Of a stretch of DNA of 51,553 nt, positions 2,733-39,591 are shown one piece after another. Made by a program: the position numbers and the translations under genes. The notes under the pieces are model-generated. The model searched no databases. It was not told where the DNA came from and saw only the letters and a program-made list of their open reading frames with translations. The DNA is taken from NCBI RefSeq assembly GCF_039654945.1, contig NW_027361819.1:1624448-1676000 (forward strand). Reading direction: 5' to 3'. This DNA comes from Dendrobates tinctorius (lineage: Eukaryota). The number at the start of each line of letters is the position of its first letter. Within the stretch, counting starts at the first letter, position 1.

Positions 2733-4301
2733 ATGGCGTCTGCGGAGCTGAGGGATGAGCTGAACTGCTCCATCTGCCTGAGCCTCTATACAGATCCCGT
2801 ATCCCTGAGATGTGGACACAACTTCTGCCGCTCGTGTATTGTGAGTGTGTTGGATGCCCAGAAGGCGGCTGAAGGGTATTTTTGTCCTGACTGCAGAGCA
2901 GAATATCCGGAGCGTCCGGCCCTGAAGAAGAACCGGAAGTTGCAGAACATAGTGGAGCGTTTCTCATCTACTCAGCCTGGTATGGAGGAGACCAGGATCT
3001 CCTGTACTTACTGTACAAAGTCTCCTGTACGGGCTGTGAAATCCTGTTTGCAGTGTGAGAATACTTTCTGTAATGACCACCTGAATGTCCACAACAAGAC
3101 ATTAGATCACATATTAATAGATCCTACAAGATCTTTTGGTAACAAAAAATGTTCCCACCACAAGAAGCTTCTGGAGTACTACTGCCTGCAGGACTCGGCT
3201 TGTCTGTGTGTGTCTTGCTGTCTGGTTGGCGAACACCGTGGACATCTGGTGGAACTTCTAGATGAGGCTTCTGAGAAGAAGAAGATGAAACTGATGGAAT
3301 ATCATAATGAACTAAATCCACAAAAAGCAGAACTTCAGACAAAAGTCCAATATCTGCAGGATCATAAGTGGAATATCCAGGAGAAAGCCTCCGATGAGAG
3401 GAACAACGTCAGGAAGATATTCAATGCCATTAGGAAGCAAGTGGAAATGGCAGAAAAGAAAGCGCTGAGTGAGGTCTCCAGGCAGGAGGAGAAGATTGTG
3501 TCTAAGATATCTGATCTGATCAAGAAGCTGGAAATACAGGAGGAAGAGCTGTCCAGGAAGATGCGTCACGTGGAGGAGATGTGTCATGTCACCGACCCAA
3601 TAAGACTCTTACAAGAAAGTGACATTACAGTATGTAGTCATGGAGGTGATGAGGACACAGAGGAAGATGGTGGAGAGGTCAGTTCTGAGGAGGCTCTGGA
3701 TGAGGTTATGATCTCACTGACCTTACACCGATCTATGCGGGATATTGTCACCAATGTGACATCAGAGCTCGGATTCCATGTCCCAGACATATTACTGGAT
3801 GTGGACACTGCTCATAGATGTGTGAAGGTATCAGAAGATCTGAAAACAGCAGCAGATTCAGATAAAGAACAGGTGAGACCAGAATCACCAGGGAGATTTT
3901 TGACTTACTCCCAAGTGTTAAGCAGATGTGGCCTCTCCTCAGGACGACATTACTGGGAGGTAGAGTGGAACCAGAAAGGAACATATGAATTGGGAATGTC
4001 CTATCCCAGTATAGAAAAGAAAAGAAAGGAGTCTGGTATGGGATATAATGATAAATCTTGGTGTCTGTGTATGTATGATGGAGAATATAAAGTATATCAC
4101 AACTCAGATGAACTAACCCTCAATGTAAAGCCAAAATGTCCAATACTTGGTATCTTCTTAGACTATGAGGCCGGGCTTCTGTCCTTCTATGAGCTGTGTG
4201 ACCCCATCAGACACTTACACACCTTCACCGCCTCCTTCACTGAACCCCTACATGTCGTCTTCTGTGTGGATGATGGGGCCTCTGTTACAATAAGAAGCTG
4301 A
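2733..4301 (+). CDS. Intronless TRIM E3 ubiquitin ligase, TRIM25/finTRIM-like architecture (copy A, 522 aa)
   Basis: C3HC4 RING (CSIC...CGHNFCRSC...CPDC), B-box1 (CTYC...CLQC...CNDHLNVH), B-box2 (CSHH...YC...CLCVSC...HRGH), coiled coil, PRY (LLDVDTAH) and SPRY (SGRHYWEVEW, GIFLDYEAG..SFY). Uninterrupted ORF. Confidence 0.95.
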   Translation: MASAELRDELNCSICLSLYTDPVSLRCGHNFCRSCIVSVLDAQKAAEGYFCPDCRAEYPERPALKKNRKLQNIVERFSSTQPGMEETRISCTYCTKSPVRAVKSCLQCENTFCNDHLNVHNKTLDHILIDPTRSFGNKKCSHHKKLLEYYCLQDSACLCVSCCLVGEHRGHLVELLDEASEKKKMKLMEYHNELNPQKAELQTKVQYLQDHKWNIQEKASDERNNVRKIFNAIRKQVEMAEKKALSEVSRQEEKIVSKISDLIKKLEIQEEELSRKMRHVEEMCHVTDPIRLLQESDITVCSHGGDEDTEEDGGEVSSEEALDEVMISLTLHRSMRDIVTNVTSELGFHVPDILLDVDTAHRCVKVSEDLKTAADSDKEQVRPESPGRFLTYSQVLSRCGLSSGRHYWEVEWNQKGTYELGMSYPSIEKKRKESGMGYNDKSWCLCMYDGEYKVYHNSDELTLNVKPKCPILGIFLDYEAGLLSFYELCDPIRHLHTFTASFTEPLHVVFCVDDGASVTIRS

Positions 4302-4976
4302 GGCCGATGTCGTCCTCGTCACATTATAATGACATTATTCCTTGTCACATGGACACATCTGTATATAGTGAGTTATCAGCGGGACCCTTTAATAATACAA
4401 TGTATATGGTGGAGTCATGGGGGGATTGTTCCTATTGTTTTTTCCTCTTCCCTGTAGATTAGATGCAGAATCAATGATTGAGGAGAATGTAAAAATGACT
4501 GAATTGTTGTGAGACTGATAATTGTTCAGTAAAGGGTTAATCATGGTATATAGCTGGGATATGTCAGCACTCTCTGACTCCCGGGACCCCCACCGATCCT
4601 GAGACTAAAGGGGCTGCAGCATTAATCCAGCCTCCTGCACATCGGAGCTCTGGACTCCCCCGGTGCAGGAGCTGCAGTACGGCCGCAGTGTATGGGGGGC
4701 ACATCGGGGGTCCGGAGCGTCACACTAAATCAGCACTGTGGCTCCTCCATTCTCGGGGTCTGTGGGGTCCGCACCAGTCAGACACTGATGGGATACTCTA
4801 GCTATATACCACCATGTGAAATGTCCTGTAATCTCCCGATGTCTCCAGCAGTGTTACAGGACCCCGGTGACGTCTGATCTGTGTGATCTGATCGCCCGGA
4901 CTGTGGAGGATGATGGGAGTTGTGGTCTCCTCGTTGTGTATTTTTTATTAGATCTTCTCAATATTATATGAAATTA

Positions 4977-4982: not shown

Positions 4983-6855
4983 GATTTCCTTTAATCCCAC
5001 CAGAAACATCTCATATATAGGAGGACGTGTGATCAGTAATCAGGGGACGAGGGCAGGGACCCCAGTGATCCTGAGATCGGGGGTCCTGTGTGCGCTCAGC
5101 CGCTTCTCTATCCCCCTGTATCTCTGTAGTCACTAAGGCGCCGTACACACAGCAGAGCCGGATACACGGAGGGGCGCACAGGCTCTGGTGGGGTCCTATG
5201 TGCGGAGATCCCCCCATAGATGCAATGTGTGCTATATCCAGACTGCAGACAGATCATCATGGCGCCGCGGGCTCTGAGCTTCACTCTGGTTCTGTGTTCT
5301 GGTGGTTCTCTGTTGGGGGATGTTCACACCACTTCTTTTTCAGTCGGGTTTGGAGCCGGTTCACTTCTGAAAATTGCCTTAAAAAGTGCTGAGAAAATGC
5401 TGCGTAGAATGGACGTATTTCTGCTGTGTGAACACGACGCGCGTCACGTGCTCAGGATTTTCCGGCTCTTGGGTTGGGTGAGGGCTTATTGTTTTCCGCC
5501 TTGAGGTGACTTTTTAATTGATACCATTTTGGGGCAGATTCGATGTTTTGATCGTCTGTTGCACATTATTGCGACAACCAAACAATGTGTAATTCTGGGA
5601 ATTAGATTTTTTTTTTTCTCCTTACACTGTTTAATTCTTTAATCAGTCATGAAGGGGTTAAATGTCCTCTATCAGCGCAGAACGACTGTTCACACCAAGT
5701 CCGGGCGCTCGGGGCATCATGGCGGCCAATCATTTATAGTGAACCCTCCCACCTGCTTGTTTTCCCGCTATCTCCGCCCCTTCTTCTTTGATTGACAGTT
5801 CTGACTTCATAGTGCTGAGAAGGACGGAGATAGATGGGAAGCTGCACGGAGCTGGCTGGCCGCCATGATGGGGCCTGGACTTGGTGTGAACAGTCGTTCG
5901 GTGCTGACAGTCGCCCTTTAGTATTACATTTACATGGTAATACGGTAACCAAGGTAACCAGGTGACTTCTCTAAGGTAACAGGGTGAATGGTAACCCATA
6001 GCAACCAGCACAGGGTAGTCTCGGAGAGCCCTGAAGAGAACCATGGTAGGTGGCATCACACCTGGTGTCAGGAGGAGGATGGCGGCTCATTTCCATCTCT
6101 TACGATGAGGTTTTCTTCCATATATCTGACAGATTCACAGACATTTCCTCAGATCGATGGTGTAATCGTGTGTTCAGAGCTGATAAATGGCGCGGCCGGC
6201 TGTGTGTTATGTGCAGGAAGAGGCGGCTGTGACCCCTCACACAACAGCTGAGACGCCATTTCAGGAGCAGAATCCTGGTCGGCCATTTTGTAGCTGTGCT
6301 CGGTGTAACGGAGGCTTTATGGTCAGTGACAGAAATGATCTCTGAGGAGACAGTTTGTGTAGGACGGAGGCCGGCCGCCATATTACAGGGTTTCCAGAAC
6401 TCTGTGTCACTAATCGCTTTATGTGAAGGCGATGGAGACCCCGGCTGTACGGAGCGCGGGCAGCCATGCTGGATCTCCACAGGGAGATGAGCGCACCAGG
6501 GTGACACAGACGTCCGACATCGATGACCTATGTGAGGAGAGTTAGGGCCGCACACCCTTAGTGTTAATGTACAGGTGACCAATACACGGCGTGGCCACAA
6601 TTTCCTGTCAGCGGAGCTGTGTGACGGCTGTGTCTGCTGGGACGAGCTGTGGTTTCCATTGGTGTCTTTCTGGGGTACATGGGACTGTGTCATCACCTTA
6701 TATTAACCCTGTAGAGGCCAAAATAACAAAAAACAGCAATTTCCGCCCGTTTTTGTTGCAGATTTTTCTCCAGTCACGGTAACACAAATCCTACATACTA
6801 GATAAAGAAAAGACCTGATTGGGGTAAAAATCAGTCACTTGGATTAAATTTTAAT

Positions 6856-7248
6856 TGTCGGGATCCCTCAGATTACTCTTTCATCTGAAGGACCGATGTT
6901 CTTGGGTGTGAAGCATCATATGTCTCTAATTAAATCAGCTCCTTGGAGAAGAACTACACAGACACCAGCTGTATGGTACAACTCAGGATGCCTCCAAGAC
7001 GCCTCTGGCTTATCAGTTAGGCTTCCGTCTTTTATAGTAAAGAATTTAAACATTTTACAGACATGCGCAGTACAAATGATTTTACAACTTGTTTTCGACA
7101 AAGAAAGTCATTTAGGCGAAAAAGCAGAGGTATTTGACCTTGGTTCACAAGGGAGATGTCTGAGACATCTCCTCGAAGAACAGATAAGGTTTTAAACAAG
7201 AGAATGCAACATAGACAGAACTCAATTTAACTCCTTCAGTTCCTATCA
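6856..7248 (-). repeat. ERV 3' LTR
   Basis: Direct repeat of 13798-14190 with one visible mismatch (6943 T vs 13885 G). Adjacent to the polypurine tract. Confidence 0.96.
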
Positions 7249-7259
7249 TTCCCCCCTTT
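7249..7259 (-). other. ERV polypurine tract
   Basis: Minus strand reads AAAGGGGGGAA immediately before the 3' LTR TG. Confidence 0.9.
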
Positions 7260-7505
7260 GACATCTTCATTTTCCACAATCTGGAACACTGGATCCTGCA
7301 ACAACAGCGGATAGTGGCTCGTTCACCAGGTACTATCCCAGGCCGACGGGTTGCCCAAGGGAGACAGGTCTTCTACCTTCTCCATCCCCCAGATACTGAA
7401 GCCACGTCCATCATTGCAAGAGTACGCTCCTTCATGCCAGAAATGAGATGTCAATCTAGGACTCAAAGGAATAATAGTTAAATTCTTGTTTACAGTCAAA
7501 CTTCC

Positions 7506-9034
7506 TTATCTATTTCTACATCTTTTCTTGCATACAGAGATACACCAAAAAACAAGTTTCAATAGCACATATATTACGAAGATACAAACAACAATACGTA
7601 ATAGACTTAGTATAATCCCAGCTATCCAGCCTCCAATACCCTTAAACCAATTAGCTGGATTAAGAAAGGAGAATGTATCTGACCACCAACTATCCTTAGT
7701 ACGATCATTGTCTTTATCGTACTGATCTCTAAGTTTTTGAACATCCTCTATTTTCAATTTTAACTTTAAACTACTGTTGGGATCTATATAATGACAGCAA
7801 GCTGGTCCGATGACTTGACACATACCACCTTGCGCTGCAGTTAAATAATCTAGTACTATGGTATGCTGATTAGTGACTATGATGAGCTGATTTTGGACAG
7901 CAACGGTGGTGTTCAATATATCCAATATATCCCATATTTGGTCATCTAAGTAATCTGTAGCCCTGACTAATTTATCCCACATTTGAGTGATCATAGGATA
8001 AATAAAAATAGAGCTGACAATTTTATTGGCCACACTCATCTGCACTATATGTGGTCTCCCAGAGAGGCGAGGTGTATTGTCAGCAGCTCTTTTGTACAAC
8101 GTGTGTTTAGGTATGCTCTGAGTATTCAACTGGTCATTCGGAATAACAAAGGTAGCTGGAGTCAAACAACCCAGAGTACAAGCACCTTTTACCCCTACTG
8201 GCAACCATTTATATGCATTGTCTCCACATACCCAGTACATGTCACTAGGTAGGTCCCATAGGGCTGAATGTTGTAATACCAGTCTATGAACTAAATCTAT
8301 GAACGCAGATACATTCTGAAGCATACACCAATTTGGAAGTTGTCCTAAAGGGCTACAATACCCTACATCGGGATTTCCACAGGTGGGAGTTCCTTTCTCA
8401 TATCCAGATGACTCGTTGCAAGGTATATTACCTGAAATATTAAAACAAGTTTCATTATTGCCCTGGGGAAATAAATTGGAATACTCCCAGGACGTGTTAT
8501 GTAACCTTCTTTCTAGCAGTATTGGTTTGAAGGCATCAGTAGAGTGGGAAGTTACATTAAAACTAACTTGTAGGCCATACATTGGAATTTGCCCCAGGTA
8601 GGTTAATCGAGTTCTATTCCTGGGTACCCAAGCCCCCCCCTTTATATGCCAGATATTGAAGGTATGTATTACTTCCTGAAAGATTACCCTGCCACCAAGG
8701 GTATCCTACCCATCCCACAATAGGTATTCCAACAGTTGTGTTCCATAACTTCACATTATTTGTGGCATTATTAGCAAGTGTATCAGAACAACTGGTCCAG
8801 GCAAATAATTCCTCGGGTGGCACAGGAATAACAAGGAACGGAATACTAGTGGCTGATACTGCTGAATGTGTGCAGATCCAGCAATCTGCTGGAGATTGAG
8901 TGTCTTTTTGACCAATCATTCAGTATTTTTTCATGATGTTGTATAAACTTATTATTCAAGGACATTGGAGAATTTAGACTATCCCACGCAGCTACCATTA
9001 TTACAGATAATGCAACAAAACCAAACCAAAACAT
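7506..9034 (-). pseudogene. env: Gamma-type env, frameshifted twice in SU; C-terminal 358 codons open
   Basis: Hydrophobic signal MFWFGFVALSVIMVAA (9034), CWIC motif (8614-8919 ORF), basic cleavage site LYKR, immunosuppressive-like QHTIVLDYLTAAQGG followed by CX6CC (CQVIGPACC), and a TM anchor. Frameshifts near 8915 and at the G-run near 8635. Confidence 0.92.
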
Positions 9035-9043
9035 TATGCACTC

Positions 9044-10905
9044 TTATGCTTTGTTAATTCCTGTGGCTAGTGTGCAATGCGATGCGTGGATCCAGGTTGG
9101 TCGTCCCTCCAACTTAACAGAAGTAGGCGTTATTAGGAGTACTTGGTAAGGTCCTTGATATCGGGGTTCAAGGGTCTTTCTGGAGTGTTTCTTGACATAT
9201 ACGTAATCACCAGGTTGTAGACAGTGATTCCTTCCACACTATCTGGATCTGGAGTGGAAGAGAAAACTAGAGAATGCATTTGAGTTAAATGCTTTTGCAA
9301 CTGGATTACATAACTTGTCAAATTATCCACATTGAGTGTTAAGACCTGTGGGTAGTACAACCCTGTGTTCAGTGGTCTTCCAAACAGTATCTCGAAGGGT
9401 GACAGTTTAGCTTTCCCCGTGGGTGTGTACCTTACTGAGAATAATGCTAATGGGAGACACTCTGGCCATGGTTTATGGGTTTGTTCCATGGTTTTCTGTA
9501 TTTTCAATTTTAGTGTCCCGTTCATTCTCTCTACCTTCCCTGAACTCTGTGGGTGGTAGGGTGTATGAAATGCTTGTTCTACACCTATCATTTGCATTAC
9601 ATTTTGCATTACCTCAGCAGTAAAGTGTGTACCTCTGTCTGATTCAATTGTTTCAGGGACACCGAATCGTGGTACTAGTTCCATCACCAGTTTCTTTGCA
9701 GTGGCTCGAGCTGTAGCCGTTTTCACCGGGTAGGCCTCTGGCCATCCAGAGAAGAGATCTACACATACTAGGATATTTGCATACACTCCTACCTTGGTAG
9801 CTGTATGTCGTCAATCTGCCGTCTCTGAAACGGGTAGAGAGGCCTAGGTGTCGCTTTCTTAGGGACTTTTACTGTTTTACCTGGGTTGTGCTGTGCACAG
9901 ATGAGGCATGATTGTACAAGTTTCGCGGCTGCGCAACTGAAGCCAGGAGCGATCCAGAAGGCATCTACCATGGCACACATGTGACTTTTTGAGGTGTGAT
10001 TGGGGCCATGTGCTGCTTGCGCCATGATTGGGAACAGGGACTTTGGTGGGCACATTTTATCCTTATTCTCCCATACTCCATTTGAGTTCAGCTCAGCTCC
10101 CAGTCTCCCTCGGTGTACCTTCTCTGTTTGGGCAGCCTTTTGCTGGAGGGATTTCAGGACATCTAGACCCAATGTGGCTGGAATACGCTGACTCCACGCC
10201 ACCGTCCACTGCTCTCTCTAGGCCGCCTTGTGCTATTTTAGCAGCCTCGTTCGCCCTTCTATTGCCCTCTACCTCCACGGAGTCACCTTTGTGTGTGCTT
10301 TTACCTTGACAATGCCAACCTGGACTGGTAACATCAATGCCTCCATCAATTGTTTCACCAGCTCTGCATTTTTAATGGGCTTCGAATCTGTGAAAATATT
10401 AGCGACTTTACCTGCAGCGGCTCTACACGCCTCAGTGAGTGCCTTCAACTCTGCCTCCTGCGCCGACATGTGAGGAGAGAGTGGTTCCGCTCGGATTACC
10501 TCATGTGAGGATACTACTGCATATCCAGTGTAGAATCGTCCATCCTGGTGGTATCTGGGGCCATCTACAAAAAAGAAACTCAAAGTCTGCATTAGGAACA
10601 GGTTTTTCATGAATGTGTGCAAACCCAACTGTCTCCTGACTCATCAGTTCTATGCAGACATGTTCATGCGTCATGTCACAGTATCCTTCCTCACTTGCCA
10701 ATACGGTCACCAATTCCCCCTTTTCTGAATCCACAGGCAGGAGGGTGGCTGGATTCAGAACGTTACATCTTTTGAGGAGTGACATACTCAGGAATTAGTA
10801 GAGCACACTCAAGTCAGAGCTGTCTGGCCATAGACAGATGTTTTGGTTGAACTTGTAGGAGTATGGCATGGATGTCATGTGGGGAATAGATTGTCAAAAG
10901 AAACG
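9044..10905 (-). pseudogene. pol: pol remnant: RT connection/tether, RNase H and integrase only
   Basis: Tether TIYSPHDIHAILLQVQPKHLSMAR...LNPATLLP; RNase H FVDG...SAQEAEL...NIFTDS...VKAH; integrase HHCC (HGPNH...CLIC), QID, SDRG and VERMNGTLK; C-terminal GPY...WIHASHC. Several frameshifts and a stop codon. Confidence 0.93.
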
Positions 10906-10916
10906 TCAGTGTCATC

Positions 10917-11622
10917 TCACATGCCTTCCCTATTACGTCTCCACTTTTTCCCTTGTGCTCCAGCATACATGACAGGTCGTTTTATTGTCCTTGTTTGCTC
11001 AATTTCTTTAGCTACCTTAAGGAGGTCTTTCGGATCTACATGTCTCCATTCAGGTCTGGCTGTCTGTACTGCGTCTCGTAAGTCTTTGTTCATACCGTCA
11101 ATGAATGCATTCACCAGTATTCTAACATCAAGTGGGTTTATGCAAATGTACCCCATGTCTGCCCATTTCAGCTGTAACCGTCCAAGGTATATCTCTACTC
11201 TCTCTCCTCTTTGCTGTGTCACATTAGTCAGGAGTACAGACTGCTCTGATTGTTCCACTGCAGCCCATTGTCTTAGTGACTCACAGTACGTCTCCCCAGA
11301 TCGTGCAGATTTATCATCCATGCCCCAAGCCTGATTCTTTGTCACATCTGTGTGTCTTAATTATATGATCTAGTGCGTCACCTGCCTTTAAACTCACCAA
11401 CCTCTCTAGGTCTGCCCAGGTACACTTATATGTTTGCTGCACTTCCTTTATGTGTCTGTAAAACGGGAATGGTTGGTCTTCAGGGGCAGGCAGCTGCTTC
11501 AGCAAAGCTAGCTGGTCAGAGGGGCTCCAGGGATAATACACCTGTATCTTTCTTATTCTAGTCACACTTCTAGGTCCTGATGGGGTTGGCCATCTGATGT
11601 CTACTGTCAGCTTACTCCTCAA
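10917..11622 (-). pseudogene. gag: gag (capsid) remnant
   Basis: YYPWSPSDQLALLKQLPAP and MHR-like QQRGERVEIYLGRLQ...LVNAFIDGM. Split between two frames, no zinc knuckle; true start upstream is not identifiable. Confidence 0.75.
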
Positions 11623-13772
11623 GGGCCAATGTCCCCACTACCCACTATCCACACTATTATTATGTCAGCTTCTTATGATCTTGTCTGGATAGGATTTAGT
11701 GCAATTCTCTTAGGTCAGTAGCACAGGTCACACAAGTAGCTATTCAGTCTGGATTTGTCTGAGTCTGACCACAGTGTTTACAAGTCCATCTGTTTTGTCT
11801 GGGTCTCTGGTTACACTTTGTCAATCAAACATTCATAATACACCTTTCACACTGCTGCACATTCTCAAGCATCATTTATTCACTTGCTATTTTCTTCCCT
11901 TGTCTGTGCCTTTTTGTACATCCAAACATTCACACTCTGGTATTTTTGCCTTTTTCAATGTTTGTCCCACTTGTTTTACTGCTTCCTTCCTTCTCTGTCT
12001 TTTGTAATTTGACACAATTTGCTATACAAATCAATCACACAACTAGAAGAAGGTTCAAACACATTAATGACCAAGCAATCACTTACAATTCCCTTCTAAA
12101 TTAGGCACCATATCTTACTTTTAACTTCCAATCTTCAATTAAGTACTGTTGCTTTAAAATGCACAAATCTTTCAGCGTGTACCTTACGGATAGAATTACA
12201 GAGAATTTTGAGCACAGCTCACACTCAGCAGAGATAAGAGCGAAGGGAGAAGAAAAACTACGCAGCTCCATCCTTCCCCCCTCCCGTCAGAATGCAGCGT
12301 CGTCCTTCACAGAATTCTGTAGTTCTTTAGACTTATCAAAATCAATTTCTACAAAGAAACTCAAAATCACGGGATTTCACTGTAAGGGCAGATAACTGTA
12401 TAATGAGATTAACCATGCCTTGCCCTTTTTCTGGCCAAATGCATTCAGGAAACTTTACAATGTAATGCCACATATAACACGAACTATATCATTACTCAAT
12501 TCATTCAGTCTCAGATGTAGATTTGAAATATCTATAACGCATCTGTCCGGGATTCCACCACAACTAGAAAGGTCACAAATCTCTTGACACAAAAACGATG
12601 TGTGATGATTCATTCATACGTGCTCATTCACTGATTTTTTTTTTTTTTTTTACTCAATTACTCATCTCTCATCTTATTCAGAGGTTCTCATAGACATATA
12701 TACAAGGATTCACACAGCCTGCCTATCTTGCACTTTGGATTTGATTAATACTTTTTCCAGGTTCTTTGCTGCACTACTTCCATATCTATCCTCAATTATA
12801 TCACATAACCGATTTCCTTCTTCAGGTATCTTTCCCTGACTGTTCCCCATCTTATCTTTTATTCTTATCCTGTCTCTCTTGTTGTCTTCCTGTTAGTCCC
12901 CTGCCTTAGGTGGTGTATTGGGTAAGCTCAAGACTAGGCTCTACTATACCTCGTTACCTTCTTCCTAAGGTGCTAACAGGCTAAATGGAGTGTCTGTTCC
13001 TCGGTGTACTACGTGTTTCGTGTACTTATATGCTATGTAGCATCCGAACAGAAATACTCCCACAACACACAGGATTGTAAATAAAGTGTCCATCTTCTGG
13101 GGTTCTTCAGTCATATCCTGTCACAGGCTCATTTCACGGTCCTGTGCTCATTCGGTCACACTCTTATCTGTCACAAGGTTTATTCGTAAAGGGTGTTGAT
13201 TTAAGCTTAGGCGGTGACCTCCCCGAAAGGACGCTGTCACATGACCCAGTTAGGCAATATCACCACTCTTTGAACGAATACCTACTGTGCAGCTTATTTG
13301 TCTACTTTTCACAGTCCTTCAAATCAAGGCAGTCACTCAACAACCTCCTCTATTCCTAGTGCGGAATCGTCTATTGTGAAAAACTTGTCCGTCCGGGCTG
13401 CGCAGTATGAACTGTTCACCCAGCCTTATATTCCGTAATGTCAGACCTCTCCCATTTTGATTTGCATCAGCTCTTTTTCTAAAAATAGCTGTGCACACAC
13501 AGAACCTACAGTAACCTCTCATTCGAGCAGAAATTACATATGCGTGTCACACCCGATTTCCTCAGAGTTCTTATATGGACCTGATTTTACGGCCCCCTCC
13601 TCTACTAGATTCCCCTTTATACGGACCTTAGTTATAATGATAGATTATGAAGAGCAGAGAAGAGAAAAATTGATCTCTTACCTGGCCAGGTGTTTAGGTC
13701 TGCTGTTCACAATTTCATCAGTAACTGGAGTGGTCTGTAGATCGGGTAGTCTTGGAGAGGTGCCTATATCAG

Positions 13773-13791
13773 GTCCCTGTTTCGGGCGCCA
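13773..13791 (-). other. Primer binding site, tRNA-Lys3(UUU) type
   Basis: Minus strand TGGCGCCCGAAACAGGGAC equals the canonical Lys3 PBS TGGCGCCCGAACAGGGAC plus one A. Lies 6 nt from the 5' LTR. Confidence 0.88.
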
Positions 13792-13797
13792 GGAAAC

Positions 13798-14190
13798 TGT
13801 CGGGATCCCTCAGATTACTCTTTCATCTGAAGGACCGATGTTCTTGGGTGTGAAGCATCATATGTCTCTAATTAAATCAGCTCCGTGGAGAAGAACTACA
13901 CAGACACCAGCTGTATGGTACAACTCAGGATGCCTCCAAGACGCCTCTGGCTTATCAGTTAGGCTTCCGTCTTTTATAGTAAAGAATTTAAACATTTTAC
14001 AGACATGCGCAGTACAAATGATTTTACAACTTGTTTTCGACAAAGAAAGTCATTTAGGCGAAAAAGCAGAGGTATTTGACCTTGGTTCACAAGGGAGATG
14101 TCTGAGACATCTCCTCGAAGAACAGATAAGGTTTTAAACAAGAGAATGCAACATAGACAGAACTCAATTTAACTCCTTCAGTTCCTATCA
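13798..14190 (-). repeat. ERV 5' LTR
   Basis: 393-bp repeat with minus-strand TATAAAA near 13972-13978. Abuts the PBS. Confidence 0.96.
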
Positions 14191-15664
14191 TAATAAATAA
14201 CCATAAAAAACCATAACATTGAAACCAATAACCAGTTATCACATAAATATAAAAGACCCAAGGGCTGGGCGATGTTCCCACAGGCCGCGCTCCGACGAGA
14301 CGTGGCCCTCAGGACCCCACAGCCCCTTTCATCATGGCCTGAAAATCTAAATGAGAGATATCTAGAGCGGTGCCGGACAGACGTCCCCGATCTCTTCTGT
14401 GTGACCCCGGAGTGAGAAAACCATCAACCAGAACCATACAGCTTTCTAATGCTTTGTTATTCCTTTTCCTTATTTTTTCCATGAATAAAAACCCTTTTTT
14501 GACCAAATTATTCTGGGGATTTTATTCGGAAAAGACGAAACAAGTAAAAGGAAAAACTCCACTTTAATGAGCTTTTTATAGTGTAGAAAAGCTTTGATTC
14601 TGCCGTTTTTTACCTGCATTTTTTTAGTCTCCACATAGAAGACAAGAGAGAAAAAAAAAAAGCACCAAAACCGCACAGTGCAGCCGCGTCTTTAGACCAC
14701 AGGGGGCGCCGCTCTCATGAAATCACACTCACTTTGCTGGAACTGCAGAATTTCCGTGCAAAAAAAGCAAAAACGCATCAAATATGGGAGAAAACGCATA
14801 AAAGAAACTCTGCAAACACGCAGTAATCAGAGGAGATTGTTATTGCGCTGTGTGGTGCAGACACCTGCCGAAAAAAACGCGGCATTTACGCTACGGTGTG
14901 AACACGGCCTCAGCATTACACTTTTATTACATTTTTAATGGTTTTTGTAGAGCAAAAATATCAATCGCAGCATATGTTTTACACCATTTACCGATTTCTG
15001 TGAATAATCTGATCGCTGTGTTGTGCTAGTCGTTACAGGGACACCATATATATCCATGTTATTGACCGATTCGTTATGTTTATTATTTAAAAAAAAAAAT
15101 GCTAATTAATACTGACATTATTGTAATTGTTTTTCATTTTTTTTAGTAATTTTATAGGAAGAAAACAAATCTCTTTTATTCTCCGTCTAGAATACAGAGA
15201 CATAGAGAGACACTGCTATGTCCAGATGTATCTCTATGTAATCAGCCTGCAGAGTCTGAGCCTGCAATACAGATCACGTATAAAAACAATTATCCCAGGG
15301 ACATCACCAGAGCCTGTGGTGCAGTAGCTTTAGCTGTTGCCGGTAATGTTGAAGGTTGTGTATTTGAGACCTTGGAAGACTCACAAAAATAGAATTAATT
15401 TTTATAACTGCTTTTTATTATTTTTTTGTAGTTTTATTAAACAAAAAAAATCTGACTTTTTCTTCCCCTCTGTATAGAAATACAAATACAGTGCTGTATA
15501 TAATGTACATGTATAATCTGCTTCTAGGGTCACTTCCTGCAATATATTCTCCTGAATGTATCATCATTGGTTTTGGCTCCTAGCTAGAGCTGCTGCTTGA
15601 GAACATGGAGATTTGAGTTGGAGTCCCGGGGAGACCCGATCACAGGAAAGGAGAACAAGTGTTA

Positions 15665-21925: not shown

Positions 21926-24690
21926 CTAAATCATCCCAGTTAGATGTCTGTCCAGCCTCTGTTTGAAGACTTCCATTGAAGGAGAACTCACCACTTCTCG
22001 TGGCAGCCTGTTCCACTCATTGATCACTCTAACTGTCAAAAAGTTTTTTCTAATATCTAATCTGTGTCTCCTCCCATTCAGCTTCATCCCATTGCTTCTA
22101 GTCTTTCCTTGTGCAAATGAGAATAAAGTTGATCCTTCTACAATGTGACAGCCCTTTAGATATTTGTAGACAGCTATTAAGTCTCCTCTCAGTCTTCTCT
22201 TTTGCAAACTAAACATTCCCAAATCCTGCAACCTTTCCTCATAAGACAGGGTTTGCAGACCGGTCACCATTCTGGTCGCTCTTTTCTGAACTTGCTCCAG
22301 TTTGTTGATGTCTTTTTTCAAATGTGGTGCCCAAAATTGGACACAATATTCCAGATGAGGTCTGACCAAAGAGGAGTAGAGGGAAATAATTACTTCACGT
22401 GATCTAGACTGTATGCTTCTGTTAATACATCCTAGAATTGCATTTGCCTTTTTTGCTGCTGCATCACACTGTTGACTCATATTCAGTCTGTGATCTATTA
22501 GTATACCCAAGTCTTTTTCACATGTGCTGTCACTTAGCCCTATTCCTCCCATTCTATATATGCTTTTTTCATTTTTATTGCCCAGATGTAGTACTTTGCA
22601 TTTCTCCCTGTTAAAAACCATTCTGTTAGTTGCTGCCCACTTCTCCAGTTTATTTAAATCTTTTTGAATCCTCTCTCTCTCTTCTCTAGTATTAGCTATC
22701 CCTCCTAGCTTTGTGTCATCAGCAAATTTAATCAGTTTACACTCAATTCCTTCATCTAAATCGTTGATAAAGATGTTGAACAATACAGGGCCCAGGACAG
22801 AGCCCTGTGGTACCCCACTTGAGACATTCTTCCAACTGGATGTGCAGCCATTTACGACCACTCTTTGGGTCCGATCACTAAGCCAGTTATGAATCCACCT
22901 AACAGTTGCCTTGTCCATTCCATACTTAGTCATTTTTTCAATAAGGATTGTATGAGAGACTTTGTCAAATGCTTTGCTGAAGTCAAGATATACTATATCT
23001 ACAGCATTTCCTTGATCCACCCAATCAGTGATACCGTCATAGAAGGAAATTAAGTTAGTCTGACATGACTTATTAGTTACAAACCCATGCTGACTCTGTT
23101 TAATCACTTCATTCTTATTCAGGTATTGACATACATGTTGTTTAATAATTTGTTCAAAGATCTTTCCTGGTATAGAAGTCAGACTCACCGGCCTATAGTT
23201 GCCTGGGTCCACCTTCTTCCCCTTTTTGAAGATAGGAACAACATTTGCTCTTCTCCAGTCTTCTGGCACTTCTCCTGTTCTCCAAGAATTTTCAAAGATT
23301 ATGGGGAGGGGTTCAAAAATTTCTTCTGCTATCTCCTTCAGTACTCTGGGGTGTAATTCATCTGGACCTGGAGACTTGAATACATTTAGGTTAGCTAAGT
23401 GTTTCCTCACTATCATTCTGTTTATAGATATCCTGGATTCTTCTATTCCCTTAATAGGATAGTGAATAACAGTTGATGTTACATTTCCTTTCTGAGAGAA
23501 AACAGATGCAAAATAGGAATTTAAAAGTTCAGCCTTCTCAACATCCTGTCTTACCATTTCATCATTTTCATCCTGTAAAAATCCTATAGCATCTTTGACT
23601 TTTCTTTTACTTTTGACATATCCCCAAAATCCTTTATTATTGCTTTTGACATCTCTTGCAAGCCTCAATTCATTTTCAGCTTTAGATAATCTGATTTGTG
23701 CCTTGCAGGTTCTGCAGACAGCATTATATTCTTCTTTAGATATGCCTCCTTCTTTCCATTTTATAAACATTTTTTGCTTCCTTTTTAGCATGTGCTTAAG
23801 TTCTGTGTTCATCCATCCTGGTTTCCTTAAATGCTTCCTATTCTTCCCTCTTCGGAATTGTTAACAACTGTGCTTTGAGAATTTCATTTTTCAAGATTTC
23901 CCATCCTTCCTGGACATTTTTGTCTTTAAGGATATCCAGCCATTGGATCCCTCCAATTCTCTTTCTGAATCCCTTAAAATCTGCCTTTCTGAAATCTAAC
24001 CTTGACGTCTGAGTCTTCACAGGTCTTCCGCCTCTAGTTATCCAAAATTCTAAAATAGCATGGTCGCTACCTCCTAGGGTCCCAGCCACTTTTACCTCCT
24101 CAACCATTTCCTCCCTGTTTATAAGGATTAGATCCAAGGTAGCAGTTCCCCTTGTTTTCTCCTTTACCTTTTGGAAGATAAAGTTGTCAGCAAGAGAGGA
24201 TAAGAATTTCCTTGACCTGTTAGTTTTGCCTGAGAGAGATTCCCAACAAATGTCTGGATAGTTGAAATCTCCCATGACAACTATGTCATATTTTTTGGAG
24301 AACTTGGCCATTTGATGCATAAAGAGTTCATCCATATCTTCAGCTTGCACAGGCGGCCTGTAGTAAATGCCTACAATGGTGTCCTTTCCATTGTTCTGTC
24401 CTTGTATTCTTACCCAAACAGTTTCCACAGAACTCCCAGTCTCTGAAGCTTCAATCTCTGTGCAGATATACGCATTTCTAACATACAATGCGACACCCCC
24501 TCCTCGTTTATCAAGTCTGTTTCTTGCAAATAAGTTGTATCCTTCTAGTCTTGTATTCCAATCATGTGTATTGTCCCACCAAGTTTCAGTGATTCCAATG
24601 ACATCATATTTCTTTTCCTGTGTTAGTAGTTCCAATTCTCCTTGTTTGTTGCCCATGCTTTGTGCATTAGTATAGAAACATTTTAGTTTG
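21926..24690 (-). pseudogene. CR1 ORF2 (APE endonuclease plus reverse transcriptase) with one frameshift near 23845
   Basis: APE motifs YTNAQS, GITETW, MGDFN and SDH. RT motifs NYRPVSLTS, LDFSKAFD, GVPQGSVLGP and FADD. ORFs 23838-24656 and 21926-23812 are joined by a single frameshift; start codon not defined. Confidence 0.92.
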
Positions 24691-24835
24691 TGATTGGTTT
24701 CTCTTTCTCCAATATTTTTTTTTATTAGATTCTTTCGTCTTTGTTCTTCCTTTCCACTTCTAATAGCAGAGTTCTCAGTAGCATTTGTCAGGTGTATGGC
24801 TTTTTCTGGTCTTTTGCTTCCCTTCCCATGTTGTT

Positions 24836-25159
24836 CTAGTTTAAAGCTCTCCTTACAAGTGTAGCAAGGCGACTTCCAAATACATGCTTTCCAGTCTTCG
24901 TAAGGTGCACCCCATCTCTAGCAAGTAGTCCATCGTATAAGTAGTTCACTCCGTGATCCAGAAATCCAAATCGTTGCTGACGGCACCATCGACGTAGCCA
25001 GTTGTTCACCTGCAGAATCTTATTCCACCTCCTTGTTCCATGGCCATCCACTGGGAGGATGGAAGAGAAGACCACCTGCGCTCCCAGTTCTTTCACTTTC
25101 TTGCCTAAGTCTTCAAAGTCTCTGCAGATGGTTTCCAGGTCGTTTCTTACGGTGTCATT
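24836..25159 (-). pseudogene. CR1 ORF1 C-terminal fragment (SGNH-esterase-like domain)
   Basis: TNDT...VVFSSILPV...NNWLRRWC...FGFLDHG...DGVHL...RRALN, typical of the CR1 ORF1 esterase domain. Confidence 0.85.
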
Positions 25160-25539
25160 TGTGATCACTGAATGTGAGGAATCACCGCATCCAATACATT
25201 GTACAGGTGAAATTTATCTTGCGGAAGCTCGCGTCTCTGCAAAATAGACTTACTGTGGTCTGGAAAGACACACCGCATGTCCGTCTCCGCAGGTAGCCAC
25301 AGGTATCGGTGCACGCTTAGCGGGTATAGGATTTCTTGAAATCCCATCCACTATGCTGTAACATCTGGACGATGTGGATGTACGCAGTGTCTAACCCGCA
25401 GCGTTTACTGACCGTGTGCCCCTACCCTAAGTGCTTTCTTCCTAAATATGGATCAGCATTCAGCAGTGATCACAACCAAGGAGCTGTAGGGGTTAATGAT
25501 CCTGCACAGACTCTCCGCCTTCCTACTGAGAGGAAACTC

Positions 25540-25571: not shown

Positions 25572-27116
25572 ATGGTGTCTGCGGAGCTGAGGAATGAGCT
25601 GAACTGCTCCATCTGCCTGAGCCTCTATACAGATCCCGTATCCCTGAGATGTGGACACAACTTCTGCCGCTCGTGTATTGTGAGTGTGCTGGATGCCCAG
25701 GAGGCGGCTGGAGGGTATTCCTGTCCTGACTGCAGAGCAGAATATCCGGAGCGTCCGGCCCCGGAGAAGAACCGAAAGCTGGAGAACATAGTGGAGCGTT
25801 TCTCATCTACTCAGCCTGATATGGAGGAGACCAGGATCTTCTGTGCTTACTGTACAAAGTCTCCTGTACTGGCTGTAAGGACATGTCTACAGTGTGAGAC
25901 CTCTCTATGTGACGACCACCTGACAGCTCACAACAAGACAATGGATCATATATTAATAGATCCTACATGATCTTTTGGCAGCAAAAAATGTTCCCATCAC
26001 AAGAAGGTTCTGGAATATTACTGCCCGCAGGACGCGCAGGTTGGTGAACACCGAGGACACCAGGTGGAACTTCTAGATGAGGCTTCTGAGAAGAAGAAAA
26101 AGGAACTGAGGAGATATCTGGATGAACTAAACCCACAAAAAGTAGAAATTCAGACAAGAGTCCAGAATCTGCAAGATCATAAAGAAAATATCCAGGAGAA
26201 AGCCTCCGATAAGAGGAAGAACATCAGTAAGATATTTATGGACATTAAGGAGCAACTGGAAATGGCAGAAAAGAAAGCGCTGAGCGAGGTCTCCAGGCAG
26301 GAGGAGAAGATTATGTCCCAGATATCTGATCTGATCAAGAAACTGGAAATACAGGAGGACGAGCTGTCCAGGAAGATGCGTCACGTGGAGGAGATGTGTG
26401 GTGTCACCGACCCAATAAGACTCTTACAAGAAAGTGACATTACAGTATGTAGTCATGGAGGTGATGAGGACATAGGAGGAGATGGTGGAGAGGTCAGTTC
26501 TGAGGAGGATCTGGATGAGGTTCTGATCTCACTGACCTTACACCGATCTATGAGTGATATTGTCACCACTGTAACATCAGAGCTCGGGGTCCATGTCCCA
26601 GACATATTGCTGGATGTGGACACTGCTTACGAATGTATGAAGGTATCAGAAGATCTGAAAACAGCAACAATATCAGAAGAAAAACAGGAAATGCCAGAAT
26701 CACCAGAGAGATTTGTGGATTACTCCCAGGTGTTAAGCAGATGTGGCCTCTCCTCAGGACGACATTACTGGGAGGTAGAGTGGGACCAGATGGGAGACTG
26801 TGCCATCGGATTGTCCTATCCCAGTATAGAAAAGGATGGCGATAAGTCTGCTATTGATTCTAATGATAAATCCTGGTGTTTGGATGTGAATAATGAAGAA
26901 TATAATGTATGGCACAACTCAGTTGTATTAACCATCAGTGTAAAGCCAACATGTCCAACACTTGGGGTCTTCTTAGACTATGAGGCCGGGCGTCTGTCCT
27001 TCTATGAGCTGTGTGACCCCATCAGACACTTACACACCTTCACCGCCTCCTTCACTGAACCCCTACATGTTATCATCTATGTGAGTGATGGAGCCTCTGT
27101 TACAATAAGAAGCTGA
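25572..27116 (+). pseudogene. TRIM copy B, disrupted
   Basis: AGA>TGA nonsense at codon 133 (25968-25970), plus a net 24-nt in-frame deletion at about 26037 removing the CLCVSCC core of B-box2. Remainder co-linear with copy C (1545 vs 1569 nt). Confidence 0.9.
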
Positions 27117-27729: not shown

Positions 27730-30700
27730 TTCGACTAAAGGGGCTGCAGCATTAATTCAGCCTCCTGCACATCGGAGCTCTGGACTCCCCCGATGCAGGA
27801 GCTGCAGTACGGCCGCAGTGGATGGGGGGCACATCGGGGGTCCGGAGCTCCACACTAAATCAGCACTGTGGCTCCTCCATTCTCGGGGTCTGTGGGGTCC
27901 GCACCAGTCAGACACTGATGGTATACTCTAGCTATATACCACCATGTGAAATGTCCTGTAATCTCCCGATGTCTCCAGCAGTGTTACAGGACCCCGGTGA
28001 CGTCTGATCTGTGTGATCTGATCGCCCGGACTGTGGAGGATGATGGGAGTTGTGGTCTCCGTTGTGTATTTTTTATTAGATCTTCTCAGAATTATATGAA
28101 ATTAAATAAAGATTTCCTTTAATCCCACCAGAAACATCTCATATATAGGAGGAGGTGTGATCAGTAATCAGGGGACGAGGGCAGGGACCCCAGTGATCCT
28201 GAGATCGGGGGTCCTGTGTGCGCTCAGCCGCTTCTCTATCCCCCTGTATCTCTGTAGTCACTAAGGCGCCGTACACACAGCAGAGCCGGATACACGGAGG
28301 CCGCACAGGCTCTGGTGGGGTCCTATGTGCAGAGATCCCCCATAGATGCAATGTGTGCTATATCCAGACTGCAGACAGATCATCATGGCGCCGCGGGCTC
28401 TGAGCTTCACACTGGTTCTGTGTTCTGGTGGTTCTCTGTTGGGGGATGTTCACACCACTTCTTTTTCAGTCGGGTTTGGAGCCGGTTCACTTCTGAAAAT
28501 TGCCTTAAAAAGTGCTGAGAAAATGCTGCGTAGAATGGACGTATTTCTGCTGTGTGAACACGACGCGCGTCACGTGCTCAGGAATTTCCGGCTCTTGGGT
28601 TGGGTGAGGGCTTATTGTTTTCCGCCTTGAGGTGACTTTTGAATTGATGCCATTTTGGGGCAGATTCGATGTTTTGATCGTCTGTTGCACATTATTGCGG
28701 AAACCAAACAATGTGTAATTCTGGGAATTTGATTTTTTTTTTTTCTCTCCTTACACTGTTTAATTCTTTAATCAGTCATGAAGGGGTTAAATGGCCTCTA
28801 TCAGCGCAGAACAACTGTTCACACCAAGTCCGGGCGCTCGGGGCATCATGGCGGCCAATCATTTATAGTGAACCCTCCCACCTGCTTGTTTTCCCGCTAT
28901 CTCCGCCCCTTCTACTTTGATTGACAGTTCTGACTTCATAGTGCTGAGAAGGACGGAGATAGATGGGAAGCTGCACGGAGCTGGCTGGCCGCCATGATGG
29001 AGCCTGGGCTTGGTGTGAACAGTCGTTCGGTGCTGACAGTCGCCCTTTAGTGTTACATTTACATGGTAATACGGTAACCAAGGTAACCAGGTGACTTCTC
29101 TAAGGTAACAGGGTGAATGGTAACCCATAGCAACCAGCACAGGGTAGTCTCGGAGAGCCCTGAAGAGAACCATGGTAGGTGGCATCACACCTGGTGTCAG
29201 GAGGAGGATGGCGGCTCATTTCCATCTCTTGCGATGAGGTTTTCTTCCATGTATCTGACAGATTCACAGACATTTCCTCATATCGATGGTGTAATTGTGT
29301 GTTCAGAGCTGATAAATGGCGCGGCCGGCTGTGTGTTATGTGCAGGAAGAGGCGGTTGTGACCCCTCACACAACAGCTGAGACGCCATTTCAGGAGCAGA
29401 ATCCTGGTCGGCCATTTTGTAGCTGTGCTCGGTGTAACGGAGGCTTTATGGTCAGTGACAGAAATGATCTCTGAGGAGACAGTTTGTGTAGGACGGAGGC
29501 CGGCCGCCATATTACAGGGTTTCCAGAATTCTGTGTCACTAATCGCTTTATGTGAAGGCGCTGGAGACCCCGGCTGTACGGAGCGCGGGCAGCCATGCTG
29601 GATCTCCACAGGGAGATGAGCGCACCAGGGTGACACAGACGTCTGACATCGATGACCTATGTGAGGAAAGTTAGGGCCGCACACCCTTAGTGTTAATGTA
29701 CAGGTGACCAATACACGGCGTGGCCACAACTTCCTGTCAGCGGAGCTGTGTGACGGCTGTGTCTGCTGGGACAAGCTGTGGTTTCCATTGGTGTCTTTCT
29801 GGGGTACATGGGACTGTGTCATCACCTTATATTAACCCTGTAGAGGCCAAAATAACAAAAAACAGCAATTTCCGCCCGTTTTTGTTGCAGATTTTTCTCC
29901 AGTCACGGTAACACAAATCCTACATACTAGATAAAGAAAAGACCTGATTGGGGTAAAAATCAGTCACTTGGATTATATTTAATAAATAACCATAAAAACC
30001 CATAACATCGACACCAATAACCAGTTATCACATAAATATAAAAGACCCAAGGGCTGGGCGATGTTCCCACAGGCCGCGCTCCGACGAGACGTGGCCCTCA
30101 GGACCCCACAGCCCCTTTCATCATGGCCTGAAAATCTAAATGAGAGATATCTAGAGCGATGCCGGACAGACGTCCCCGATCTCTTCTGTGTGACCCCGGA
30201 GTGAGAAAACCATCAACCAGAACCATACAGCTTTCTAATGCTTTGTTATTCCTTTTCCTTATTTTTTCCATGAATAAAAACCCTTTTTTGACCAAATTAT
30301 TCTGGGGATTTTTCTCAGAAAAGGCGAAACAAGTAAAAGGAAAAACTCCACTTTAATGAGCTTTTTATAGTGTAGAAAAGCTTTGATTCGGCCGTTTTTT
30401 ACCTGCATTTTTTTAGTCTCCACATAGAAGACGAGAGAAAAAAAAAAGCACCAAAACCGCACAGTGCAGCAGCGTCTTTAGACCACAGGGGGCGCCGCTC
30501 TCATGAAATCACACTCACTTTGCTGGAACTGCAGAATTTCCGTGCAAAAAAAGCAAAAACGCATCAAATATGGGAGAAAACGCATAAAAGAAACTCGGCA
30601 AACACGCAGTAATCAGAGGAGATTGTTATTGCGCTGTGTGGTGCAGACACCTGCAGAAAAAACGCGGCATTTACGCTACGGTGTGAACACGGCCTCAGCA

Positions 30701-38022: not shown

Positions 38023-39591
38023 ATGGCGTCTGCGGAGCTGAGGGATGAGCTGAACTGCTCCATCTGCCTGAGCCTCTATACAGATCCCGTATCCCTGAGA
38101 TGTGGACACAACTTCTGCCGCTCGTGTATTGTGAGTGTGCTGGATGCCCAGGAGGCGGCTGGAGGGTATTCCTGTCCTGACTGCAGAGCCGAATATCCGG
38201 AGCGTCCGGCCCTGGAGAAGAACCGGAAGCTGGAGAACATAGTGGAGCATTTCTCATCTACTCAGCCTGATATGGAGGAGACCAGGATCTTCTGTGCTTA
38301 CTGTACAATGTCTCCTGTACCGGCAGTAAGAACTTGTCTGCAGTGTGAGACCTCCCTATGTGACGACCACCTGACAGCCCACAACAATACAGTGGATCAT
38401 ATATTAATAGATCCTACAAGATCTTTTGGCAGCAAAAAATGTTCCCATCACAAGAAGGTTCTGGAATATTACTGCCCGCAGGACGCGGCTTGTCTGTGTG
38501 TGTCTTGCTGTCTGGTTGGTGAACACCGAGGACACCAGGTGGAACTTCTAGATGAGGCTTCTGAGAAGAAGAAAAAGGAACTGAGGGAATATCTGGATGA
38601 ACTAAACCCACAAAAAGTAGAAATTCAGACAAGAGTCCAGAATCTGCAAGATCATAAAGAAAATATCCAGGAGAAAGCCTCCGATAAGAGGAAGAACATC
38701 AGTAAGATATTTATGGACATTAAGGAGCAACTGGAAATGGCAGAAAAGAAAGTGCTGAGCGAGGTCTCCAGGCAGGAGGAGAAGATTATGTCCCAGATAT
38801 CTGATCTGATCAAGAAACTGGAAATACAGGAGGACGAGCTGTCCAGGAAGATGTGTCACGTGGAGGAGATGTGTCGTGTCACCGACCCAATAAGACTCTT
38901 ACAAGAAAGTGACATTACAGTAAGTAGTCATGGACGTGATGAGGACATAGGAGGAGATGGTGGAGAGGTCAGTTCTGAGGAGGATCTGGATGAGGTTCTG
39001 ATCTCACTGACCTTACACCGATCTATGAGGGATATTGTCACCAATGTAACATCAGAGCTCGGGGTCCATGTCCCAGACATATTGCTGGATGTGGACACTG
39101 CTTACGAATGTGTGAAGGTATCAGAAGATCTGAAAACAGCAACAATATCAGAAGAAAAACAGGAAATGCCAGAATCACCAGAGAGATTTGTGGATTACCC
39201 CCAGGTGTTAAGCAGATGTGGCCTCTCCTCGGGACGACATTACTGGGAGGTAGAGTGGGACCAGATAGGAGACTGTGCCATCGGATTGTCCTATCCCAGT
39301 ATAGAAAAGGATGGCGATAAGTCTGCTATTGGATATAATGATAAATCTTGGAGTCTGGATATGTATAATGGAGGTTATAAAGTATGGCACAACTCCAATG
39401 AACTAACCCTCAGTGTAAAGCCAACATGTCCAACACTTGGTATCTTCTTAGACTATGAGGCCGGGCGTCTGTCCTTCTATGAGCTGTGTGACCCCATCAG
39501 ACACTTACACACCTTCACCGCCTCCTTCACTGAACCCCTACATGTTATCATCTATGTGAGTGATGGAGCCTCTGTTACAATAAGAAGCTGA
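38023..39591 (+). CDS. Intronless TRIM E3 ubiquitin ligase, TRIM25/finTRIM-like architecture (copy C, 522 aa)
   Basis: Same RING, B-box1, B-box2, coiled-coil and PRY/SPRY motifs as copy A. Uninterrupted ORF. Confidence 0.95.
   Translation: MASAELRDELNCSICLSLYTDPVSLRCGHNFCRSCIVSVLDAQEAAGGYSCPDCRAEYPERPALEKNRKLENIVEHFSSTQPDMEETRIFCAYCTMSPVPAVRTCLQCETSLCDDHLTAHNNTVDHILIDPTRSFGSKKCSHHKKVLEYYCPQDAACLCVSCCLVGEHRGHQVELLDEASEKKKKELREYLDELNPQKVEIQTRVQNLQDHKENIQEKASDKRKNISKIFMDIKEQLEMAEKKVLSEVSRQEEKIMSQISDLIKKLEIQEDELSRKMCHVEEMCRVTDPIRLLQESDITVSSHGRDEDIGGDGGEVSSEEDLDEVLISLTLHRSMRDIVTNVTSELGVHVPDILLDVDTAYECVKVSEDLKTATISEEKQEMPESPERFVDYPQVLSRCGLSSGRHYWEVEWDQIGDCAIGLSYPSIEKDGDKSAIGYNDKSWSLDMYNGGYKVWHNSNELTLSVKPTCPTLGIFLDYEAGRLSFYELCDPIRHLHTFTASFTEPLHVIIYVSDGASVTIRS

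Follow-up and report, generated by a model that had tools for sequence, protein, structure and literature searches.

A recent endogenous retrovirus insertion in a poison frog, probably a helper-dependent recombinant around a broken foreign core

Introduction

How can a retroviral genome that lacks gag, protease and reverse transcriptase (RT) arrive as a fresh insertion? The question is raised by an endogenous retrovirus (ERV) in a 51,553-nt stretch of Dendrobates tinctorius DNA (contig NW_027361819.1, positions 1,624,448 to 1,676,000; hereafter the window), where it runs from long terminal repeat (LTR) to LTR at 6856-14190 on the minus strand. A sequence-only reading of the window had described it as an RT-less, env-bearing ERV with brand-new LTRs and an old, broken interior, copied in trans by an intact helper. 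Here we report that the element is probably a recent copy of a non-autonomous recombinant ERV, in which the integrase and env ends of a young lineage surround a broken, RT-less core of a second lineage, and that it was likely mobilised by the proteins of a competent relative. The nearest relatives of its proteins are found in frogs, with the best matches in D. tinctorius itself.

Results

A recent reverse-transcribed insertion

The ends of the element, its cis elements and the sites used for comparison are as follows.

6856-14190, minus strand: whole ERV, LTR to LTR
6852-6855: target-site duplication (TSD), left, 4 bp, by sequence comparison
14191-14194: TSD, right, 4 bp, by sequence comparison
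29980-29983: empty paralogous site 2, by paralog comparison
42258-42261: empty paralogous site 3, by paralog comparison
6856-7248, minus strand: 3' LTR, 393 nt, TG...CA
13798-14190, minus strand: 5' LTR, 393 nt, TATA box at 13978-13973
7249-7259, minus strand: polypurine tract (PPT), abutting the 3' LTR, by sequence
13773-13791, minus strand: 19-mer like a primer-binding site (PBS), 6 nt behind the 5' LTR, by sequence
12851-13772, minus strand: 5' leader, by sequence

Paired LTRs, TSD, PBS and PPT, the marks of reverse-transcribed integration, are all present, and here the sequence-only reading was right in each particular: the LTRs (6856-7248 versus 13798-14190) differ at 1 of 393 nt, the 4-bp TSD is perfect, its bases occur once at each of the two empty paralogous sites (29980 and 42258), and LTRs, PBS and PPT are kept. 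The locus is tandemly duplicated in three copies, which around the insertion site are about 98% identical, and because both paralogs lack the element its age is capped. One LTR mismatch amounts to 0.13% divergence per LTR (95% range 0.003-0.71%). At 2.5e-9 per site per year, the rate given in the D. tinctorius genome preprint (bioRxiv 2023.11.06.565769), the insertion is about 0.5 million years (My) old, and up to 2.8 My. It is thus recent, as had been claimed, but not necessarily brand-new, which was an overstatement. The left flank carries one additional T relative to both paralogs. No canonical poly(A) hexamer was seen among the four tried.

The PBS is presumably tRNA-Lys-like and is one base longer than the tRNA-Lys PBS. 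Folding of the 5' end gave z -5.2 for 13500-13950 and a modest z -2.2 for the 300-nt window 13651-13950. Two of 13 such 300-nt windows fell below z -2, and because the 5'-end signal was matched at 9651-9950 we did not use it as evidence.

The element was compared with contigs of four runs, X1, X5, X9 and X10, one each from four studies, X10 being a DNA run; contig differences and absences refer throughout to the matches listed. Sixteen of the 24 listed runs belong to one organism, come from five studies and carry 63-71% of the sampled words of the window. The letters at 6976 and 6980, which both LTRs share, are missing from X1 and X10 contigs, so further LTR variants exist. Over the PBS region (13773-13797) the X1, X5 and X9 contigs equal the window, and X10 is shorter in 672 of 6,422 depth.

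Protease and RT are deleted and the interior is broken

The gag side of the interior consists of the following pieces.

10932/10933, minus strand: deletion junction from the end of gag to the RT connection, at least 1.6 kb missing
10933-11637, minus strand: capsid-region remnant, frame change near 11350; from open reading frames (ORFs) and tblastn with P0011, P0049 and P0047
11638-12850, minus strand: decayed matrix-side gag, Met-Gly start at 12850

Capsid sequence had been said to run directly into the RT connection at 10905-10920. The deletion stands and its position shifts to 10932/10933, the point at which contigs of undeleted relatives depart from the window in all four runs. In tblastn with the Bufo gag-pol model P0011, residue 84 maps to 10968 and residue 619 to 10936, with protease (88-186) and RT (305-472) lying between them by Pfam. 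Residues 84-619 are thus collapsed into about 30 nt, so that at least 1.6 kb has been lost. Neither a protease motif nor a Cys-His box occurs in any minus-strand frame of the element, and the only YxDD sits inside env, which bears out the earlier statement that protease and the RT polymerase are missing. The nucleocapsid was probably lost too, since there is no Cys-His box. Coding capacity for gag, protease and RT is absent from the element. The gag pieces had no Pfam match, and none of 207 candidates was a longer homologue of the capsid piece; the Met-Gly pair at 12850 would be the gag start. In the matrix-side gag lies a 17-base homopolymer (12635-12651), perhaps the tail of an old insertion.

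Frameshift-aware alignment to seven frog pol proteins placed a stop at 10814, frameshifts near 10775, 10575, 10285, 10200, 9790 and 9227, and a 24-codon gap in RNase H near 10380. All seven references agreed on these, though positions scattered and one or two more breaks were called around 10176-10235. Against every one of the 14 full-length env models there were two env frameshifts, near 8905 and 8640; the frame change in gag near 11350 came from the ORF map. The total is 12 discrete lesions, 11 of them indels. Apart from the deletion this makes 11, in line with the "about ten" first counted. The earlier inventory was sound for discrete lesions and understated the decay of 11638-12850, which comes on top with 20-39 stops per frame.

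The core probably derives from a second lineage

The remaining coding parts and the two edges of the core were assigned as follows.

7506-9034, minus strand: env, young lineage; Pfam TLV_coat, CxxC in the surface subunit (SU), CX6CC in the transmembrane subunit (TM); broken near 8905 and 8640
9047-9755, minus strand: integrase core and C-terminal domain, young lineage; rve, MLVIN_C; frameshift near 9227
9756-10932, minus strand: probable foreign-core pol remnant; end of the RT connection, RNase H, integrase zinc finger; one stop, five frameshifts and the 24-codon gap
9721-9775, minus strand: putative 3' crossover zone, where the foreign core meets young integrase; identity step versus P0133 and P0001
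12848-12851, minus strand: putative 5' limit of the foreign core, at the probable start codon of gag; loose contig ends, depth step

P0133 and P0001 are pol models of D. tinctorius in which RNase H and integrase are open. The window's three pieces upstream of 9755 (tether, RNase H, zinc finger) are 44-63% identical to P0133, whereas the three downstream of it (integrase core and C-terminus) reach 95-98%. The step is sharp against both models, at 9754-9784. The RNase H is closer to those of other dendrobatids, 78-86% to P0154 and P0049, which are ERV remnants of Ranitomeya imitator and Phyllobates terribilis. Trees were built from short pieces and the hit subsets covering each piece (16-29 rows). 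In the zinc-finger tree the window is sister to P0154 (100/99), and a clade of the window with P0133 and P0001 was rejected by the approximately unbiased (AU) test for both RNase H (p-AU 0.006) and zinc finger (p-AU 1e-6). In the integrase-core tree the window is sister to P0001 (100/98). P0001 itself stays with P0002-P0004 in both trees (zinc finger 97/95, integrase core 89/68), and the window joins them only in the latter.

Contigs mark both edges. At the 3' edge an X5 contig departs at 9721 and X10 summed depth climbs from 7,015 to 35,938; record 26 of X9 bridges this edge with zero differences. At the 5' edge X5 and X9 contigs depart at 12851, the base preceding the Met-Gly codon pair, X10 depth drops from 13,056 to 4,658 and 3,565, and record 7 of X1 bridges. 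These data argue that the element is a mosaic, with a foreign core extending from the gag start codon (12850) to about 9755. The old interior of the sequence-only reading is upheld; what it missed is the second ERV lineage, from which this interior came by recombination and not through the decay of a single lineage.

The stretch 9651-9950 (minus strand) over the 3' crossover had the lowest folding score of the 13 windows, z -2.6, which may be chance. An env splice acceptor at 9472, where contigs end in three runs, was ruled out, as there is no AG and a codon difference versus P0001 lies there.

Most lesions recur in other studies

Eight of the 12 lesions, the deletion included, were crossed without gaps in the contigs of at least one run. 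Record 4 of X1 (9704-10927) carries six pol lesions with four other letters and no gaps; record 28 of X9 (10489-11439) spans the deletion and the gag frame change without gaps, as does record 5 of X1 for the deletion; and records 18 and 19 of X5 have four of the pol lesions. All eight lie within the 3.1-kb core, making up eight of its nine lesions; for the three lesions of the young part no recurrence was shown. The lesions near 10775 and 11350 are mixed in X10. Of the others, the frameshift near 8640 is missing in three of four runs and mixed in X10; the frameshift near 8905 is missing in X9 and X10, while the X1 and X5 contigs have an 18-column gap of unplaced position. Three lesions, 10814, 9227 and 8640, look specific to the present copy.

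Scaled by the indel ratio of the flanking paralogs, 0.8 indels would be expected since insertion (upper bound 4.7), against 11 observed. Together with the eight shared lesions this indicates that most lesions predate the insertion. The claim that they all do is supported for eight of 12 and not for 10814, 9227 and 8640. The same recurrence bears on consensus errors, named earlier as a possible refutation, for lesions found in other studies' short-read contigs are not errors of one assembly.

X10 summed depth is 10,050-35,938 in the bins of 9724-12770; the leader has 3,565-4,658 and the left flank 36. Depths of 1,845-2,400 belong to individual X10 contigs of leader and integrase, versus 28-42 in the flanks, or 44-87x.

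An X10 contig over the empty site was considered as a presence/absence polymorphism and rejected, its two and four differences matching paralog 2 exactly. In X9 one contig skips 610 nt of env (8429-9040) with GT..AG ends on the minus strand; the donor lies a few bases before the env start, and the short side of 28 makes the joint weak. Another X9 contig lacks 7459-8190. None of the runs that match the window is recorded as RNA; the X1, X5 and X9 contigs give weak hints of transcription, in sparse flank cover, depth concentrated on env and the X9 GT-AG joint, and we do not claim it.

A young class I lineage is the likely helper

The env of the element is 88.5-94.3% identical to 14 full-length env models of D. 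tinctorius, which with two open RNase H-integrase models represent the young lineage in this species. On the strength of these env models, this lineage is the likely helper. An MLV-type integrase C-terminus, a gamma-type env and nearest relatives in frogs place the element in class I. No relatives were found in viral contigs, and PDB gave matches only to foamy and lentiviral integrases, which are uninformative for class. The lineage may be epsilon-like (RMERV/Xen1 group), as is the family described in PMC12690878; the RT by which it would be placed is deleted, and the hits included no reference virus with a name.

P0094, a 358-aa model of D. tinctorius annotated "syncytin-A-like", shares the start Met of the window's truncated env frame (8582) and is 97.8% identical to the window env. 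It is likely a sibling locus with a broken env start and not a domesticated gene.

Host locus

Each tandem unit holds a single-exon TRIM gene on the plus strand (2733-4301, 25572-27116 and 38023-39591) with RING, B-box, coiled coil and PRY-SPRY (Pfam, on copy 2). In copies 1 and 3 a frame of 522 codons is open; copy 2 has an in-frame stop at 25968-25970. The ERV lies antisense to copy 1, 2.5 kb downstream of it. A near full-length long interspersed element (LINE), in pieces at 21926-25213 on the minus strand, has an esterase-like ORF1, endonuclease and RT, and is missing from the corresponding place of the other tandem unit; it is probably CR1/L2-like.

Discussion

Proposed origin

On our reading, an older dendrobatid ERV lineage would have lost protease and RT and decayed, and its RNA would have been co-packaged with that of a younger virus carrying env. 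Two switches of template, one at the gag start and one within a conserved integrase stretch, would have given the decayed core the young leader, LTRs, PBS, PPT and env, leader and LTRs being presumably of young origin. The recombinant would then have been copied in trans to new sites, the present insertion falling within about 0.5 (up to 3) My, with packaging, reverse transcription and integration performed by the competent relative's proteins. Because the element has no gag, protease or RT and yet integrated recently by reverse transcription, we infer that these proteins came from elsewhere; because two lineages are joined in register, co-packaging with template switching seems the simplest route. 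Multiple insertion sites are probable. The shared lesions and the indel excess likewise favour the earlier proposal that a defective RNA was copied with proteins from elsewhere.

Several points weigh against this reading. The depths hint at tens to a few hundred related copies, but contig depth is no copy number, and one of the compared runs may be the window's own source. The compared contigs showed no further insertion site with a TSD of its own. Contigs of all four runs lack the stop at 10814 and the frameshift at 9227. The window differs from the X1 contigs at 52 of 6,524 letters (0.8%), more than the LTR-age point prediction, so that the true age of the insertion may exceed its apparent one; with age at its upper bound, the probability of 11 or more indels is 0.009, which is not negligible. 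The tree pieces, of 58 and 121 aa, are short, and their groups were picked once the identity step was known. The 5' edge is drawn from loose ends and depth, with no young-lineage gag for comparison. No RT-bearing protein of the young lineage was retrieved: the 90 hits included one D. tinctorius cluster of two members, neither with RT, a blank that tells little because many annotated pol models begin after RT. Finally, the LTR of the published intact D. tinctorius family is 495 bp and not 393 (PMC12690878).

A bolder version, which we entertain as possible though rather doubtful, is that the core is a serial passenger: present in hundreds of copies with at least two sets of ends, it would have captured an invader's LTRs and env at the gag start, would outnumber the helper's transcripts and would still be inserting in poison frog germ lines. 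It may have travelled under more than one LTR set, as the core is deeper than the ends and some contigs tie it to ends of another kind.

Alternative explanations

Could a single ERV lineage have produced the element by plain internal deletion, with copying in trans as in IAP I-delta-1, and P0133 and P0001 be the recombinants instead? Undeleted relatives of the core do exist in all four runs (loose ends at 10932), and the deep branches of the short-piece trees are weakly supported. P0001, however, keeps P0002-P0004 in both trees whereas the window has them only in the integrase core; all eight shared lesions lie in the core; and depth and loose ends shift at both core edges. The element does not follow one parent lineage throughout, as a simple deletion derivative would, and we consider this explanation improbable.

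Quite unlikely is an old provirus that broke down where it stands, gene conversion having homogenised its LTRs, with the remaining contigs being alleles or segmental copies of this locus. The 0.8% difference from X1 would fit the upper bound of allelic divergence, and a tandem duplication makes conversion plausible. Yet both paralogs, at 98% identity, are empty and so limit the age, no more than three lesions fall in the young coding part, contig depth is 44-87x that of the flanks, and conversion does not explain the mosaic pol. We give still less credence to a mosaic that formed a single time at the DNA level, through ectopic conversion or exchange involving two resident proviruses, and was never amplified, with the shared contigs coming from this locus and two parent families. 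No second full-length mosaic was seen and none of the compared contigs spans the whole element, as this would have it; but both core edges are bridged in runs whose contigs are otherwise unlike the window, and the X1 path through all junctions holds nearly all depth. That the indels are consensus errors of the assembly is suggested by three frameshift sites in or beside homopolymer runs of 6-8, and the break near 8640, in a homopolymer and missing in three of four runs, may by itself be one; for the core the idea is refuted by the lesions' recurrence in short-read contigs, the two flanking 522-codon TRIM frames are open, and we dismiss it as a general explanation.

Comparison with known systems

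Bovine ERVK C/D, MusD/ETn and KoRV/recKoRV are described in PMC10924933 as pairs in which a central segment was swapped for a piece of an old retroelement while the ends were kept. Three of six features of this type are found in full in the frog element: the marks of reverse-transcribed integration, the lack of gag, protease and RT capacity, and a decayed, apparently foreign central segment. Of its ends, integrase (95-98%) and env (88-94%) are close to open-frame models, whose family may be coding-competent; the comparison covered these two proteins. Its junctions recur at high depth in contigs of other studies, in which the insertion sites themselves were not seen. The element probably belongs to the central-swap, helper-dependent type of recKoRV, the bovine ERVK D-type and ETn, a kind well known from mammals.

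In cattle, the ERVK[2-1-LTR] D-type (PMC10924933) is likewise about 7 kb long and without an intact gene; its ends are common to a competent clade, and its swapped segment of 2.7 kb, like the 3.1 kb of the frog element, is an old retroelement piece. It is, however, a class II element of a mammal whose mobilisation was measured in sperm, whereas the frog element is class I with a candidate helper only; and it keeps part of the competent gag, whereas the 5' edge in the frog lies at the gag start. The recombinant of KoRV and PhER, recKoRV (PMC6112702), shares young LTR ends, an old core and genuine TSDs. Its junctions are common to individuals and those of the frog element recur in other runs' contigs. 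In recKoRV dissimilar parents were joined at microhomologies, whereas the frog element joins related class I parents in register and, unlike recKoRV, keeps the integrase core and whole env of the young parent. Mouse ETn/MusD and IAP I-delta-1 (PMC1331978) are also defective and dependent on proteins supplied in trans, and can predominate among transcripts and fresh insertions; they are class II, env-less and intracellular, and I-delta-1 is a simple deletion.

ERV-Epsilon-Dti of D. tinctorius (PMC12690878), ORF-intact and transcribed, with 147 copies, 10,370 nt and 495-bp LTRs, is likewise class I and recent, and likely of the same host or genus. Its intact ORFs and 495-bp LTR set it apart by description from the frog element with its broken ORFs and 393-nt LTR. 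Many of its "copies" in Table S2 are short, repeatedly 1,151 nt plus 86 nt about 4.44 kb apart, which indicates related or defective families and makes the count of 147 uncertain. A literature search that covered few subscription papers found no amphibian non-autonomous recombinant ERV.

Implications

The element is real, has firmer support and is more specific than first described, and differs from the mammalian cases as an amphibian class I element in which two related viruses are joined in register. It cautions that LTR dating gives the age of an insertion and not that of its interior, and pol-based ERV surveys in amphibians miss such families. The retained part of a competent gag may, it is suggested in PMC10924933, aid trans-complementation; a swap that apparently starts at the gag start codon and keeps none of the young gag bears on this idea. 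The same text noted the central swap as a striking parallel among three mammalian ERV pairs, and with a class I example from a frog it would become a general fate of retroviral invaders. If the serial passenger is true, poison frogs would offer a living example, in an amphibian, of an ERV family pushed towards extinction by a defective element.

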